Of a DNA stretch of 64,000 nucleotides, positions 3,115 to 61,523 are shown in pieces. The stretch's first letter is position 1. Each line of letters begins with the position of its first letter. The notes under the pieces were generated by a model. It worked only from the letters and a program-made list of their open reading frames with translations, ran no database searches and was not told the origin of the DNA. This DNA is from a virus. Taxonomy: Duplodnaviria; Heunggongvirae; Uroviricota; Caudoviricetes. The stretch lies in the IMG/VR virus record IMGVR_UViG_3300042887_005798; one strand, given 5' to 3'. A program made the translations under genes and the position numbers.

Positions 3115-3408
3115 TTATTTAATCCACTCGAAAATTCCCTGTCTTGCCAAAAGTCCTTTTTTGATTGTGTAAGTGTTGTCGCCAATAAAAACACAAACTG
3201 GGACAGACATAATATTTAGTTCTTGAGCAAGCTCAGGGCTATCATCAATATCTACTTTAAAGATTTTGGTTTCCACTTCTGGATGTTCAGATAAAAGAAG
3301 ATCAATTTCTTTGTCTAGAGCTTTACATGGAGAACACCATGAGGCACCGAGTTTAACCACACACTTTTCGCCTGAAGAGACAAGATTTTTAAATTTTTCT
3401 ACATTCAT
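3115..3408 (-). CDS. trxA: thioredoxin
   Basis: WCSPCK active-site motif about 25 aa after an internal Met (MNVEKF...), giving the usual Trx length. GCGTATAAT lies 9 nt upstream of that ATG, so the start is moved from the track start at 3450. Confidence 0.7.
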   Translation of the reverse strand: MNVEKFKNLVSSGEKCVVKLGASWCSPCKALDKEIDLLLSEHPEVETKIFKVDIDDSPELAQELNIMSVPVCVFIGDNTYTIKKGLLARQGIFEWIK

Positions 3409-3418
3409 AACAATATAA

Positions 3419-4024
3419 TTATACGCTAGAAACAAAAGGATTTGTGCCAAATTTTTCGATTAAGTCCTTTTTCAGCTTCAATGTATTTTTTTCTACACGT
3501 TGAGACAAATCATAAGAATTGCTAGTAATGTTTGTAGCCCAAAAATATTCTTGATTAAAAAAATCATCATGATTCATTTCATCCCAGCTAAACTGTGAAT
3601 ACCATTTTATTGTTTCGTCAGCTTTCTTACTGTCTTTGAATTTCTCTTCGAAGCCTTTTTGCAATAATCTGATTCTGTGTGAAGAGTGTATTGCTTCGTC
3701 ACCTAGCCAAATTGGGCGTAACAGGCTTGTCGTGAATGTTGCATATTGCTTGATTTTAGCTGTTGCGTAGTCAGTTTTGAATCCTCTCTTTTCAATTTCA
3801 ATTACATTGTGAATTAAATGTTCTATCAAGGCACCAGGAGTGCTTTGCCAAGCTATCAAAGCAGGGTGTGTCATCCAACCTTTGCGAGGTTTTCCTGTTT
3901 TTGTTGGTATATTGAACATGATGTCTAATAATTGAGTTGATTCTAAGGCTTGTTTTCTAAGCCGCGAGTCATCAAGTGCTTGAACACTTTTTTCAAAATC
4001 CGCATAGGGCATAAATACTTGCAT
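3419..4024 (-). CDS. hypothetical protein (201 aa)
   Basis: ORF track; motif A plus TATAAT immediately upstream. Confidence 0.4.
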   Translation of the reverse strand: MQVFMPYADFEKSVQALDDSRLRKQALESTQLLDIMFNIPTKTGKPRKGWMTHPALIAWQSTPGALIEHLIHNVIEIEKRGFKTDYATAKIKQYATFTTSLLRPIWLGDEAIHSSHRIRLLQKGFEEKFKDSKKADETIKWYSQFSWDEMNHDDFFNQEYFWATNITSNSYDLSQRVEKNTLKLKKDLIEKFGTNPFVSSV

Positions 4025-58011: not shown

Positions 58012-60831
58012 TATATCAACTGCATATCCTTTTACTTTTAAATTTTGTTTCACTACGTCTGGAATATTTTCATTATATTTAATATATTGAAAATCTAATT
58101 TATCTGCAAATTTTATAATAAAATTTTCAGATAATTGAAATTTTCTTGATATTTGGCGCCAATTATAATCATTAAATTTATGTGCAAATTTACTCAAAAA
58201 ATATTCAGGTAACGTTGTATTTTCTAGTATATCATTCATTTCACGATCAGGAATCTCAGCAATTTTTTCTTCAAAATCAACAAAAAATTCATTTGATAAA
58301 TTTTTTGTTGACATAAGAACTCTATCAAATTTTATTTTGTCAGCAAATTTTCTTATGTAATCTTCAGTAAAATTTTTATAGCGATAAAGATAACCAATAA
58401 ATTCTGAAATTTCATCGTAATATTTATTTATAAAATCTTCTGAAGGAATTTTACCGCTATAATTATCCACAAAAGCTTGAATAATAACTTCTTTTAAGCT
58501 AGGATATTTTTTTATATATTTTTCTGCCACTTGTTCATTGCAAGATTTATTATGAGAACAAAATTGTCTTACTATCCAATCTTGATTACGTTCAAAATTG
58601 TTAAATTTCTCAAAGATAAGGTCAAAAAATCTTAACGGAGCACTATATGCAAAACTAAATTTACCAATTAAATTTGGTATATACTTCATAATAAATTCGT
58701 TGTTGTTATAAATTTTTTCATTACCTGAAATATTATCCCATGCTTCATAAGGCAGATTAGTCATAGAACTAATTATTGCATCAATGATGTCGAATGTAAC
58801 AAACCTTAAGAAATAAGATGCGCCTTTTTCAAATAAATATTTTGCTACTTTAATAGATTTTGGTTGGACGTAAAAGCTACCAAACAGTTTTTTTTGTTCC
58901 TCACTACTTAAGTTTTCAAATTTTTCAAAAACAAAATCTGCTATTTCATGATCAGAAGAAAAAAGTGCTGCAAAATCCATATTCTTGGCTTGCACATCAA
59001 AATTATTACTTAAAAGCCATTGTATGGTAAGTTGATTACTGAATCTTGCTTTATCATCGTTGATCAAAATTTGCAAATCATTTTTTGCAAGTTGTTTTGA
59101 TAAAGCAAACATTGCTTGTGCGTCAGCTGAGTTTATGACTCTAAATAGATCTTTTTCATCAAGAGAATCTATTTTTTTACCCAATGATATTAAGAAATTA
59201 TTATTTCCATAACCAAAAGATACTCTATCAAGAATATATTTTTTTTGATCTGGCGTTAAGGTATCAAAATATTGATAATAAAAAGCTTTAAGCTTTTCAT
59301 CAATACCTATAGATAATATAGTTGCGAAATCAATTGGTTTATCTGTTTTAATATTATTGGAAAGGTAAAAAGCTGCTTTATATTGAGTTTTAACTTCAGT
59401 TTGTTTCAATTTTTGATCGATATCTTCCTGAAAAACACTTTGTTTATACAAGTTACTAAACAATTCGATATCTGAAAATTCAAATCCATAATTCCATATA
59501 AATACGGCATACCAATTTATATTATTGCTAGTTATCATACCATTAGCATAAAGTTTTCTAATTGCAGCCAGATTACTTAAAAGAACCCCAGATAAAAGAT
59601 TTTTGCTCTCGTTTGCAGGCAATGAACTTAAATAGTCAATTGTAAAATTATGTTCTGCATTAGATTCAACTAAACGCTTTTTATCAAAATCTTGATCCAT
59701 CAAAAAAAAGAACATTTCAGGAGACTGAACTTTCATGAATTGGTCTTTTGTAATTTTTCCTTCATTTATAAGTTCTGTGATTAAATCGAAATCATTTGAA
59801 CCCAGTGCTAAATTTTTAAGTTTGTAATCTTCAGTAACTTGTGCTTTTATTTCATTAATATAATTTGTTCTTCTAAACTCATAAGTATTTTTGTATTGAT
59901 TATTTGTAAATAACATATTTTTTTGGCTTTCTGTAATACAGGTACCTGTATTCAAGTACTCCCGAATTAAAATGTCTTTCAAAGAACTTTTCAAAATATA
60001 TCTTAGTTGATCATCAGACAAAAGATGACCCATGCCAATATATTTAGATTTATAATCTGATGATAATTTTTTAAACCATTCGTAATCGGTGTTTCTTTCA
60101 CTAAGTGTATTGATTTCTTTTTTTTCTTCTTCTGTTAATGGTTTATTAACAAATTGAGAAATATCTACTTCTTTTTCTTCTTTCAAATAGTCAAAATATG
60201 CTTGCCAATCTGTACCAAATTCAGCTATTGTACCAGTGGTGTTACCAAAATCAGTGAGTTTGACAACACCGTTTGCTTGCATATCTACCATCACTCTTTT
60301 CAAATTGTCTGTTCTTGTTCCATCTTGCACATAGTAAAAAGTAGATTGGTGATTAAGTCTGTATGAGTTATAAGCTTTAATACCTGTACCAGGTTGAGAA
60401 ATGCACCAAGTGGTACCCCTTCCAAATCTTATTGTATCATTGACATCATTGCAGGGATATACTTGAACTTCTCCAGCAATAAACTCTAAAGCTTGTAAAC
60501 TTTGTTGTTTTTTCTTTTCTTGTTTATATTCTTTTTTGTACATTACTTCATCGTACACGGGATCAACAGCTTCTGCTAAATCAGTTAAACTTTCACAAAC
60601 TTTTCCTAAAAAATTAACAGTTTTTTTATTAGTGTTTTTATCAGTGTTTAATTCAATTATGTTTTGATCAAAAAAATTTATTTCATCTAATTTTAATAAT
60701 TTTTCTTTTATATCATCAAGAATATATAAATCATTTGGAGAATTTTCATATTCTTCCCTAAAATGATTGTAAATTTTGGCAATTATATGTTCTTTTTTCG
60801 CTATAATTAATCTGCAATACCGATACCACAC
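58006..60831 (-). CDS. large hypothetical protein (941 aa)
   Basis: ORF track; no recognisable motifs by eye. Confidence 0.5.
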   Translation of the reverse strand: MWYRYCRLIIAKKEHIIAKIYNHFREEYENSPNDLYILDDIKEKLLKLDEINFFDQNIIELNTDKNTNKKTVNFLGKVCESLTDLAEAVDPVYDEVMYKKEYKQEKKKQQSLQALEFIAGEVQVYPCNDVNDTIRFGRGTTWCISQPGTGIKAYNSYRLNHQSTFYYVQDGTRTDNLKRVMVDMQANGVVKLTDFGNTTGTIAEFGTDWQAYFDYLKEEKEVDISQFVNKPLTEEEKKEINTLSERNTDYEWFKKLSSDYKSKYIGMGHLLSDDQLRYILKSSLKDILIREYLNTGTCITESQKNMLFTNNQYKNTYEFRRTNYINEIKAQVTEDYKLKNLALGSNDFDLITELINEGKITKDQFMKVQSPEMFFFLMDQDFDKKRLVESNAEHNFTIDYLSSLPANESKNLLSGVLLSNLAAIRKLYANGMITSNNINWYAVFIWNYGFEFSDIELFSNLYKQSVFQEDIDQKLKQTEVKTQYKAAFYLSNNIKTDKPIDFATILSIGIDEKLKAFYYQYFDTLTPDQKKYILDRVSFGYGNNNFLISLGKKIDSLDEKDLFRVINSADAQAMFALSKQLAKNDLQILINDDKARFSNQLTIQWLLSNNFDVQAKNMDFAALFSSDHEIADFVFEKFENLSSEEQKKLFGSFYVQPKSIKVAKYLFEKGASYFLRFVTFDIIDAIISSMTNLPYEAWDNISGNEKIYNNNEFIMKYIPNLIGKFSFAYSAPLRFFDLIFEKFNNFERNQDWIVRQFCSHNKSCNEQVAEKYIKKYPSLKEVIIQAFVDNYSGKIPSEDFINKYYDEISEFIGYLYRYKNFTEDYIRKFADKIKFDRVLMSTKNLSNEFFVDFEEKIAEIPDREMNDILENTTLPEYFLSKFAHKFNDYNWRQISRKFQLSENFIIKFADKLDFQYIKYNENIPDVVKQNLKVKGYAVDIL

Positions 60832-60848
60832 AATCTGTTTTTAGGTAT

Positions 60849-61523
60849 TTAAATTTTTTTTTCCTGCTTAAATATATCTTCTACAACTATTTTAATTTTT
60901 TCTTTGAACTCAGCTTCTGTTCCATTATTCTCGATTGTGTATTTAAACAAATGATGATAATTGTCTAATTCAGTTTCTGAAGAATGAGAAGATGATGGGT
61001 CTGCAGATTTGCTCAAAAACTTTTTATTTCTAGACACAATCTGATAAAACACAATCAAAAACGGTCTGAGCAGAATGTGTGAAGCCCAAGAATACTTAGT
61101 ATGTGAAAGACTTTTGAGCCACGCCTTATATCCGTGTAAATCCCTTTTAATATGAACAGTGTGCCCACCTTGAGAGTTGATAAATTCGATTTCATTTAAA
61201 TATCTTGCGTCAGTGATAATGTAGATTGTGTCTGGGTCTTGCATTCTCCAAAAAGCCAGTTTTACCCAATAATTCTTATCACAAAACTCTCTACGAATTG
61301 TGCCCCATCCTTGTAGTAAAGGTCTGGCAATTTCTTTTACATTGTCATCCTCAAACATATTTCTTGATAAGCCATTAGGTATAAGTAAGATTGTGTCTAA
61401 TTCTTTTTTGAGCTCATCAGCGAAAGCTACTCTTTCCACCTTCTTATCAGGATAAAGTTCTTTAACAATTCGGCAAAATGTATCTTTGCCCACTCTTTTT
61501 TTGTACGAACAGCTTATAATCAT
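60849..61523 (-). CDS. deoxynucleoside monophosphate kinase (T4 gp1-like)
   Basis: SYKKRVGKDT versus T4 GVKRSGKDT, YWVKLAF, ITDARYLNE and the C-terminal IENNGTEAEFKEKIK collinear with T4 dNMP kinase. Confidence 0.65.
   Translation of the reverse strand: MIISCSYKKRVGKDTFCRIVKELYPDKKVERVAFADELKKELDTILLIPNGLSRNMFEDDNVKEIARPLLQGWGTIRREFCDKNYWVKLAFWRMQDPDTIYIITDARYLNEIEFINSQGGHTVHIKRDLHGYKAWLKSLSHTKYSWASHILLRPFLIVFYQIVSRNKKFLSKSADPSSSHSSETELDNYHHLFKYTIENNGTEAEFKEKIKIVVEDIFKQEKKI

Follow-up and report, generated by a model that had tools for sequence, protein, structure and literature searches.

Cellular-type translation, transcription and proteostasis genes scattered singly through a probable huge freshwater bacteriophage

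Huge phages that encode aminoacyl-tRNA synthetases, translation initiation factor 3 (IF-3), transfer-messenger RNA (tmRNA) and sigma factors have been described, and this repertoire was read as interception of host translation (Al-Shayeb et al. 2020, Nature 578:425; PMC7162821). The moraphages are large, mainly freshwater metagenomic phages that encode DnaK and DnaJ and were reported to lack aminoacyl-tRNA synthetases (Perez-Hernandez et al. 2025, Arch Virol; PMC12619734). Here we describe a 64,000-nucleotide stretch of viral DNA (IMG/VR record IMGVR_UViG_3300042887_005798; hereafter the window) in which a tyrosyl-tRNA synthetase (TyrRS) homologue and other genes of cellular type are scattered one by one. 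The window is very probably a largely non-structural interior section of a huge tailed freshwater bacteriophage with ~32% guanine plus cytosine (G+C) and a genome of at least 357 kb. As the translation gene repertoire of huge phages has already been published, this main finding is confirmatory; what is new is a widespread freshwater lineage, matched to no deposited phage, among the huge phages with cellular expression and proteostasis machinery. Its gene set is unusually broad, comprising DnaK, GroEL, ClpP, ClpS, signal peptidase I (SPase I), YidD, NusG, two sigma-type proteins, IF-3, tmRNA, GatB and a TyrRS-like protein.

Comparison with described phages draws on the window and on ~135 kb of its parent contig (positions 12.4-147.5 kb), which were read with Pfam annotations and PHROGs. 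Like the phages of Al-Shayeb et al., this one has a genome above 200 kb, scattered genes for an aminoacyl-tRNA synthetase, IF-3 and tmRNA, and sigma factors of its own; its DnaK shares 52-54% identity with the DnaK of their uncultured phages, which have genomes of 635-735 kb. Unlike them, it carries an orphan GatB, a NusG between two sigma factors, SPase I and YidD, none of which is mentioned in the main text of PMC7162821, while no CRISPR-Cas and only one tRNA were seen in 135 kb. DnaK is also present in Lak phages and is held in common with the moraphages, from which the present lineage departs in having a TyrRS homologue, a DnaK without DnaJ, and GroEL and ClpS in addition.

Two further groups bear comparison. 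Large T4-like and related myoviruses—KVP40/nt-1, Atu_ph07 and Sinorhizobium phage Phosso—share rIIA/rIIB, DenV, dNMP kinase, an NrdG-type activase, thioredoxin, NAMPT, IF-3 and the phrog_12709 protein, the last being common to large myoviruses of the KVP40/nt-1 type, and a TATAAATA-like box of the late-promoter type is another likeness. However, identities are only ~30-40%, and the part read shows none of the T4 core genes for structure and replication; because rIIB (the flank copy of which matches 2,905 phage records) is spread over many phage families, its presence does not establish T4-like ancestry. Cyanophage S-CRM01 and the Microcystis jumbo phage MaAM05/PhiMa05 have NusG homologues at 36-38% identity and come from the same lake habitats (Erie, Mendota), and S-CRM01 has in addition a Kelch-type protein, g22 of its tail-fibre cluster, that is homologous to one in the window. 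Here again identity is low, and no photosynthesis genes were seen in the part read. Matches of the pilin-like and sigma proteins weakly suggest a host among Planctomycetes or Verrucomicrobia rather than the hosts of cyanobacterial phages.

The case for a phage is built on what can be read off directly: gene identities, missing operon partners, motifs, contig context and recurrence in many assemblies. The window corresponds exactly, in reverse, to positions 48,937-112,936 of a 174,109-bp lake metagenome contig (JBFDQA010005514.1, alias Ga0453733_0000010), and proteins identical to those of the window and of both its flanks lie on a 356,595-bp contig, placing the genome well within the size class above 200 kb. 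A first-pass annotation, made from the letters of the window alone, had recognised a huge-phage repertoire, and contig size, the neighbouring phage-only genes and the published gene content of huge phages all bear it out. Residue-identical proteins in the same gene order recur in dozens of independent assemblies (JGI, ENA, NCBI and Logan), from Lakes Mendota and Erie and from European lakes, across different lakes and different years. No nucleotide similarity to deposited phages was found by megablast in INPHARED.

Coding layout is compact. At ~32% G+C, the window holds ~100 tightly packed genes, mostly on the minus strand, with 96% of its length coding under code 11, and ORFans shorter than 150 amino acids (aa) make up over half of the gene set. 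An alternative genetic code was considered and set aside, as opening TGA, TAG or TAA brought no coherent gain. The apparent gap in open reading frames (ORFs) at the right end, 61.6-64.0 kb, is a single long plus-strand ORF running off the window. In G+C at third codon positions (GC3), the cellular-type genes stand at the phage mean (0.26 +/- 0.05), which argues that these genes are old residents and not assembly artefacts.

Family models uphold the names that the first-pass annotation had given to TyrRS, GatB, IF-3, tmRNA, DnaK, ClpP, SPase I, YidD, NusG and one sigma factor, as well as to ThyX, the LAGLIDADG homing endonuclease, the GH108 lysozyme and dNMP kinase (Table 1). Its description of the cellular-type genes as isolated is equally sound: the usual partners GatA/GatC, L35/L20, GrpE/DnaJ and SmpB are missing from the Pfam annotations of the window and of contig positions 12.4-147.5 kb, and neither SecE nor L11 was found adjoining NusG there. 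Nor do ribosomal protein genes occur in the window or in the ~135 kb read, and Rfam models, run on the window and on four flank loci that cover part of that stretch, returned only tmRNA and tRNA, with no rRNA. The single tRNA of the ~135 kb is a tRNA-Met in one flank.

Table 1. Features assigned in the window, by position, with the evidence for each
Position	Strand	Feature	Evidence
2-1066	-	ATP-dependent DNA ligase	Precomputed PF01068 + PF14743; start at 1066, C-terminus off window; full gene 370 aa
3115-3450	-	Thioredoxin, 97 aa in public gene calls	PF00085 7.6e-15
3419-4024	-	Pyrimidine-dimer DNA glycosylase, T4 DenV type	Precomputed PF03013
4041-4943	-	300-aa conserved phage protein, function unassigned	phrog_12709 6e-51; tblastn 31% identity, 70 phage records
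4940-5452	-	IF-3	IF3_N PF05198 74.9 bits + IF3_C PF00707 84.3 bits, both above cut-off
5811-6032	-	YidD, membrane protein insertion efficiency factor, 73 aa	Precomputed PF01809
9674-11080	-	TnpB (IS605 OrfB / Cas12f-like), first of three copies	Precomputed PF01385 + PF07282
11709-12584	-	Secretin-N domain protein with signal peptide	Precomputed PF03958 + PF21305
13178-14374	-	TyrRS homologue, type 2	PF00579 1e-73; TIGR00234 324 bits vs cut-off 113.8, full-length
14380-14976	-	Second ClpP candidate: secreted ClpP/SppA-like protein	Weak: NF045542 20.9 bits vs cut-off 120
15005-16453	-	GatB, amidotransferase subunit B	GatB_N + GatB_Yqey; NF004012 613 bits vs 338
17919-18809	-	SPFH/Band-7 membrane protein	Precomputed PF01145
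21428-22591	+	TnpB, second copy	Precomputed PF01385 + PF07282
28423-30303	+	DnaK (Hsp70)	NF001413 875 bits vs 648; TIGR02350 849 bits vs 823
30397-32275	+	146-aa protein + 478-aa Kelch-type beta-propeller	Homologues inside virion operons of two unrelated phage types
35013-36981	-	Six tandem small membrane protein paralogues (predicted)	Alignment; each ends ...SQIWVNE
37475-38596	-	LAGLIDADG homing endonuclease-like protein	PF14528 2.4e-8
38671-39246	-	ClpP protease subunit	PF00574 5e-75
41038-41532	-	SPase I	PF10502 6.7e-23
42102-42486	-	tmRNA	Rfam RF00023 108 bits vs 47, full length 1-374; ARAGORN tag AKKNRRNGFGSAQAGFAMVA
43033-43620	-	Extracytoplasmic function (ECF)-type sigma-70 family factor	Pfam and NCBIfam matches
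43682-44212	-	NusG-like factor	NGN PF02357 80 bits vs 22.2 (1.8e-22); KOW 21.5 vs 22.3, marginal
44220-44918	-	Divergent sigma-70-like protein, probable	Weak: TIGR02937 31.1 bits vs cut-off 42.9, E 1.6e-7, residues 26-225
44986-45594	-	Radical-SAM activase, anaerobic ribonucleotide reductase activase type	PF13353 2.6e-30
45629-46846	-	TnpB, third copy	Precomputed PF01385 + PF07282
46926-48149	-	Y-family (DinB/ImpB) DNA polymerase	PF00817 2.5e-31
50709-51545	-	ThyX, flavin-dependent thymidylate synthase	PF02511 2.5e-56
51564-52523	-	Short adenylosuccinate-synthetase-like protein, 319 aa	Under PurA (250 vs 402 bits) and PurZ cut-offs
53514-54308	-	GH108 muramidase + peptidoglycan-binding domain, endolysin-like	PF05838 1.6e-16
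55386-56417	-	Prepilin-type N-terminal methylation-domain protein	PF07963 + TIGR02532
60849-61523	-	dNMP kinase-like protein	PF21448 36.4 bits vs 27.1

Among the translation genes, the TyrRS homologue is the most peculiar. It is ~50% identical to type-2 TyrRS proteins of solved structure and 26% identical to the TyrRS of jumbo phages of the Serratia phage BF type. The HIGH and KMSKS motifs of class I synthetases serve in ATP binding and transition-state stabilisation. Neither is canonical in this protein, which has TLGW for HIGH (HLGH in the aligned PDB chains of TyrRS) and KMSQS for KMSKS, and variants from other lakes have the same residues at both motifs. Such degeneracy makes normal TyrRS activity doubtful; judged from its residues, the protein may be a synthetase with impaired catalysis or with a new role, and perhaps not an active synthetase at all.

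GatB is, by contrast, one of three proteins (with ClpP and SPase I) in which catalytic motifs appear by eye to be retained. Its closest relative, 64% identical, is encoded on a cellular contig (ERZ27296384:k141_420487; 653,761 bp, 56% G+C), where pyruvate kinase, ParA, DivIVA and, ~3.4 kb away, an Amidase-family gene of the GatA type lie near gatB; other representatives reach at most 49%. The lineage of that contig may be the donor of GatB or the host lineage. GatB in INPHARED occurs mostly in unannotated or host-contaminated records, and in no well-characterised phage genome. The IF-3 gene lacks rpmI and rplT beside it, so that the infC-rpmI-rplT linkage is gone, and it has homologues in jumbo phages of Sinorhizobium and Agrobacterium. 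The tmRNA has no SmpB in cis in the 135 kb read. Each gene of cellular type thus has phage precedent, with the orphan GatB, SPase I and YidD perhaps as exceptions.

The genes of proteostasis and secretion type are those for DnaK, ClpP, a ClpP-like secreted protein, SPase I and YidD in the window and for GroEL and ClpS in its flank. The first-pass annotation had counted two ClpP-type proteases, of which the protein at 38671-39246 is secure and the second, at 14380-14976, is weak. The model matched by the latter describes a ClpP-related head-maturation protease; against ClpP of the PDB the protein gives an E-value of ~0.9, and in Pfam it has no match. A BLASTP comparison with the ClpP of the window (E 0.003) aligns INSTGG with INSPGG and the His residues with each other, but does not align the catalytic Ser.

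The same annotation placed NusG between two sigma factors. NusG itself, which has homologues in cyanophages and MaAM05, stands, as does the ECF-type factor on one side; the neighbour on the other side is a weaker case, for it falls below the cut-off of its family model, reaches a PDB sigma factor at E 0.006 and has no Pfam match. The phage-style promoters that had been proposed hold up well, in that three upstream motifs are over-represented far beyond shuffle expectation. The first, class I, reads TTTTCCAGGTTTAACA-N9-TATAAT/TATAGT. Its 12-mer CCAGGTTTAACA occurs in eight exact copies, all on the transcribed strand, and with up to two mismatches in 15 copies where 6.0 are expected; sites at 1086, 4044, 6260, 7411, 9225, 28314, 33970 and 43666 are all on the minus strand. 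Mostly the 12-mer lies 14-46 nt from a start codon, and ATG often follows TATAAT by 4 nt. Class I motifs precede the genes for the ECF sigma factor, DenV, the ligase (20 nt upstream), a helicase-like protein and an outer membrane protein (OMP)-like protein, a set that may be the regulon of a phage sigma factor. For the ECF sigma gene, the presence of its own class I motif (43666-43677) suggests autoregulation.

Class II is a box abutting the start codon. CGTATAWAWW is found 15 times against 1.07 expected, and for 15 of 90 genes a GTATA[ACT][AT] box begins exactly 12-13 nt ahead of the start codon, with 20 of the 90 having it between -22 and -10, where 0.85 would be expected; examples of (C)GTATAAA/T lie at 1877-1886, 5602-5611, 19744-19753, 20092-20101, 34980-34989 and 61527-61536. 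A Shine-Dalgarno (SD)-like tetramer precedes only 18 of the 90 genes. If the box is a -10 hexamer, it ends 5-6 nt before ATG, so transcripts would start at the ATG itself. This suggests leaderless mRNAs, which merit notice beside a phage-encoded IF-3. IF-3 normally discriminates against leaderless initiation.

What surrounds these genes is of phage type. Phage-specific non-structural genes—rIIB, a rIIA-like HATPase, Mom, DenV, GH108, dNMP kinase, LAGLIDADG and HNH endonucleases and an intein—are interspersed with the cellular-type ones, and large lytic phages typically carry such genes as the rIIA-like one, Mom, DenV, dNMP kinase, a GH108 endolysin, homing endonucleases and an intein. The ligase that the first-pass annotation listed among phage enzymes is indeed ATP-dependent (PF01068), yet its gene lies outside the interval 3115-61523 to which it was assigned and is truncated by the window edge; the ORF that opens that interval encodes thioredoxin.

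A two-gene module at 30397-32275 provides a tie to virions. In 79 IMG/VR loci, this pair is all that is held in common with the window (43-60% identity). On a 44-kb podovirus-like contig the homologous pair sits between major head and structural proteins and genes for internal virion and tail-fibre proteins, and in S-CRM01 the Kelch homologue g22 lies inside the tail-fibre cluster. The 478-aa protein is modelled by AlphaFold at a predicted local distance difference test (pLDDT) score of 85.7 with a fold that matches Kelch propellers; a fold search returned a generic beta-propeller and no virion-specific match. Among GTDB genomes, the relatives of the Kelch gene are confined to short contigs that lie dispersed in unrelated metagenome-assembled genomes (MAGs), which is the pattern of viral mis-binning.

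How such a phage might use its cellular-type genes can be outlined in conditional terms. Bacterial genes would have been acquired singly, their codon composition now matching the phage. Phage sigma factors would recruit the core RNA polymerase of the host to promoters specific to the phage, with the two promoter classes, TTTTCCAGGTTTAACA-N9-TATAAT and the (C)GTATAAA/T box fixed 12-13 nt before ATG, as their targets, and NusG would keep the redirected polymerase processive. IF-3, tmRNA, GatB and the TyrRS-like protein would sustain or bias translation while the host declines, and the chaperones and proteases would cope with the load of phage protein. Redirection of host translation, which the first-pass annotation linked to this repertoire, would be likewise hypothetical here.

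Several points weigh against a phage arm equipped in this way. No gene for a major capsid, portal, terminase or tail protein was detected by Pfam or PHROGs in contig positions 12.4-147.5 kb. Ribosomal protein operons or rRNA, together with a lack of virion genes, had been named at the outset as the signature of a non-viral contig; no rRNA or ribosomal protein genes appear in ~135 kb, but major capsid, portal and terminase genes were not found there either. Scans of an IMG/VR subset with GatB and far-flank proteins did not find the exact genome, and the 30397-32275 pair could be horizontally acquired non-structural genes. The degenerate signature motifs mean that "boosting translation" may be the wrong description for TyrRS, and the functional steps as a whole are inferences from sequence.

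A more novel reading keeps the phage and alters the role of its genes: we consider it possible, though rather unlikely, that the "translation" genes belong to an unusual expression system of an undescribed phage lineage, beyond topping up host capacity. Its elements would be the -10 box 12-13 nt before ATG, with no SD, in at least one-fifth of genes; the phage's own IF-3; a TyrRS homologue that could bind tRNA as a decoy or in a regulatory role; a GatB that, lacking its partners, would need to plug into the host GatCAB; and the 9-10-nt word (C)AGATTGTGT, present about once per kb and the same word that seeds ~60 tiny genes. The degenerate TyrRS, the orphan GatB, the start-abutting promoter boxes and the genome-wide 9-mer are in any case testable leads on rewired initiation of transcription and translation.

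That 9-mer, AGATTGTGT, is the commonest in the window, with 58 copies against 0.85 expected, often extended to CAGATTGTGT(G/T); examples lie at 2622, 12709, 19757, 28634, 42209 and 61568. It occurs on both strands (31/27), in every reading frame and in both orientations to genes; the DnaK, DinB and tmRNA genes are among those that contain it. Fifteen of the 58 sites are within 60 nt upstream of a start codon (6.2 expected). Elsewhere on the contig its density is 10-15 per 20 kb, rising to 70-80 per 20 kb in the tiny-gene array, while unrelated loci hold two copies in 1.04 Mb. From its distribution, it looks like a DNA-level signal of the uptake, Chi or protein-binding-site kind. A scan of IMG/VR for pairs of the 9-mer gave mostly chance matches and no clear relative, and a literature search on it returned only primers.

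A large extrachromosomal element other than a phage—a megaplasmid or plasmid-like molecule that collected phage and cellular genes and has no virion of its own—is improbable. It would explain why 135 kb contain no capsid, portal or terminase gene and why the exact contig is not in the IMG/VR subset searched, and some large putative plasmids do carry analogous suites of translation genes (Al-Shayeb et al., PMC7162821). However, rIIA/rIIB, the GH108 endolysin, DenV, dNMP kinase and the virion-operon module are features of lytic phages; plasmid replication, partition and conjugation families are absent from the Pfam annotations of the stretch read; and the ~220 kb of the at least 357-kb genome outside that stretch offer ample space for a structural module.

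A reduced cellular genome, from a symbiont or ultra-small bacterium with scrambled operons, is very improbable and close to refuted. The many genes of housekeeping type (DnaK, GroEL, ClpP, IF-3, TyrRS, GatB, NusG, tmRNA, SPase I and YidD), the low G+C and a flank methyltransferase whose best named relatives are in MAGs of Chlamydiae and Babeliales would fit such a genome. Yet ~135 kb with no rRNA, no ribosomal proteins and one tRNA would not, nor would the loss of partners that are universally linked in infC-rpmI-rplT, nusG-secE-rplK and gatCAB, the predominance of short ORFans with phage-only genes in between, or the placement of Kelch gene relatives on small contigs of unrelated MAGs. A chimeric assembly that joins phage to bacterial sequence, or a eukaryotic giant virus, is just as improbable. 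A metagenome origin leaves room for the former, and some IMG/VR matches to the 9-mer pattern are contigs of giant virus MAGs, though by chance alone. Against this reading, assemblies made independently from different lakes and in different years repeat the gene order with identical proteins, GC3 is uniform, cellular-type and ORFan genes share the 9-mer and the promoter motifs, and a bacterial host is indicated by sigma factors of bacterial type, tmRNA, rII and a peptidoglycan hydrolase.

The flanks of the window add further content to the huge phage that we favour. One carries an intein-containing protein, GroEL, an Ogg-like glycosylase, AdoMet decarboxylase, ClpS, a ~28-kb glycan-biosynthesis island and AdoHcy hydrolase. 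The island, at contig ~22-49 kb, is composed of many glycosyltransferases and methyltransferases, sugar epimerases/dehydratases, a DegT aminotransferase and nucleotidyltransferases, and GroEL, ClpS and the intein-containing protein sit past it. For the N-terminal domain of the last of these, an assignment as tail tubular protein A was tried; the matches were weak and were not used as evidence. The other flank contains the remainder of the ligase, NAMPT, a RyR-domain protein, Mom, rIIB, tRNA-Met, a rIIA-like GHKL ATPase and DUF6745, together with ~60 tandem tiny genes and small ORFans with an HNH endonuclease.

The tiny-gene array is a further lead worth pursuing. It extends over contig ~120.0-143.0 kb as ~58-65 tandem, translationally coupled genes with a median product of 57 aa. 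All begin MINTDCV(E/K), encoded by AGATTGTGT, and continue into QVW-rich repeats. Copy number varies between strains, and the array is broken by the rIIA-like gene, DUF6745 and a 145-aa gene.

Strain variation is also seen within the window. In islands at 9446-11080 and 21037-22720, TnpB insertions and a neighbouring gene for a 604-aa helicase-like protein are present in some strain contigs only; others have nothing there, or proteins of 126 and 178 aa and a DUF4379 protein. The TnpB islands are thus strain-variable within one phage population. The short PurA-like gene adjoins the ThyX gene; a PurZ reading of it, which would imply a Z-genome, was rejected at 104 bits against a cut-off of 300. 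Further window content comprises RmlC, STN domain proteins and many ORFans. Genes of envelope or pilus type lie at 11709-12584, 32518-33930, 55386-56417, 56839-57408 and 57496-58011, a set that includes secretin-N, STN domain, prepilin-like and SLOG/DprA-like proteins and a 470-aa OMP-like protein with a signal peptide and an aromatic end. Finally, in the row of six predicted small membrane protein paralogues, each gene overlaps the start codon of the next.

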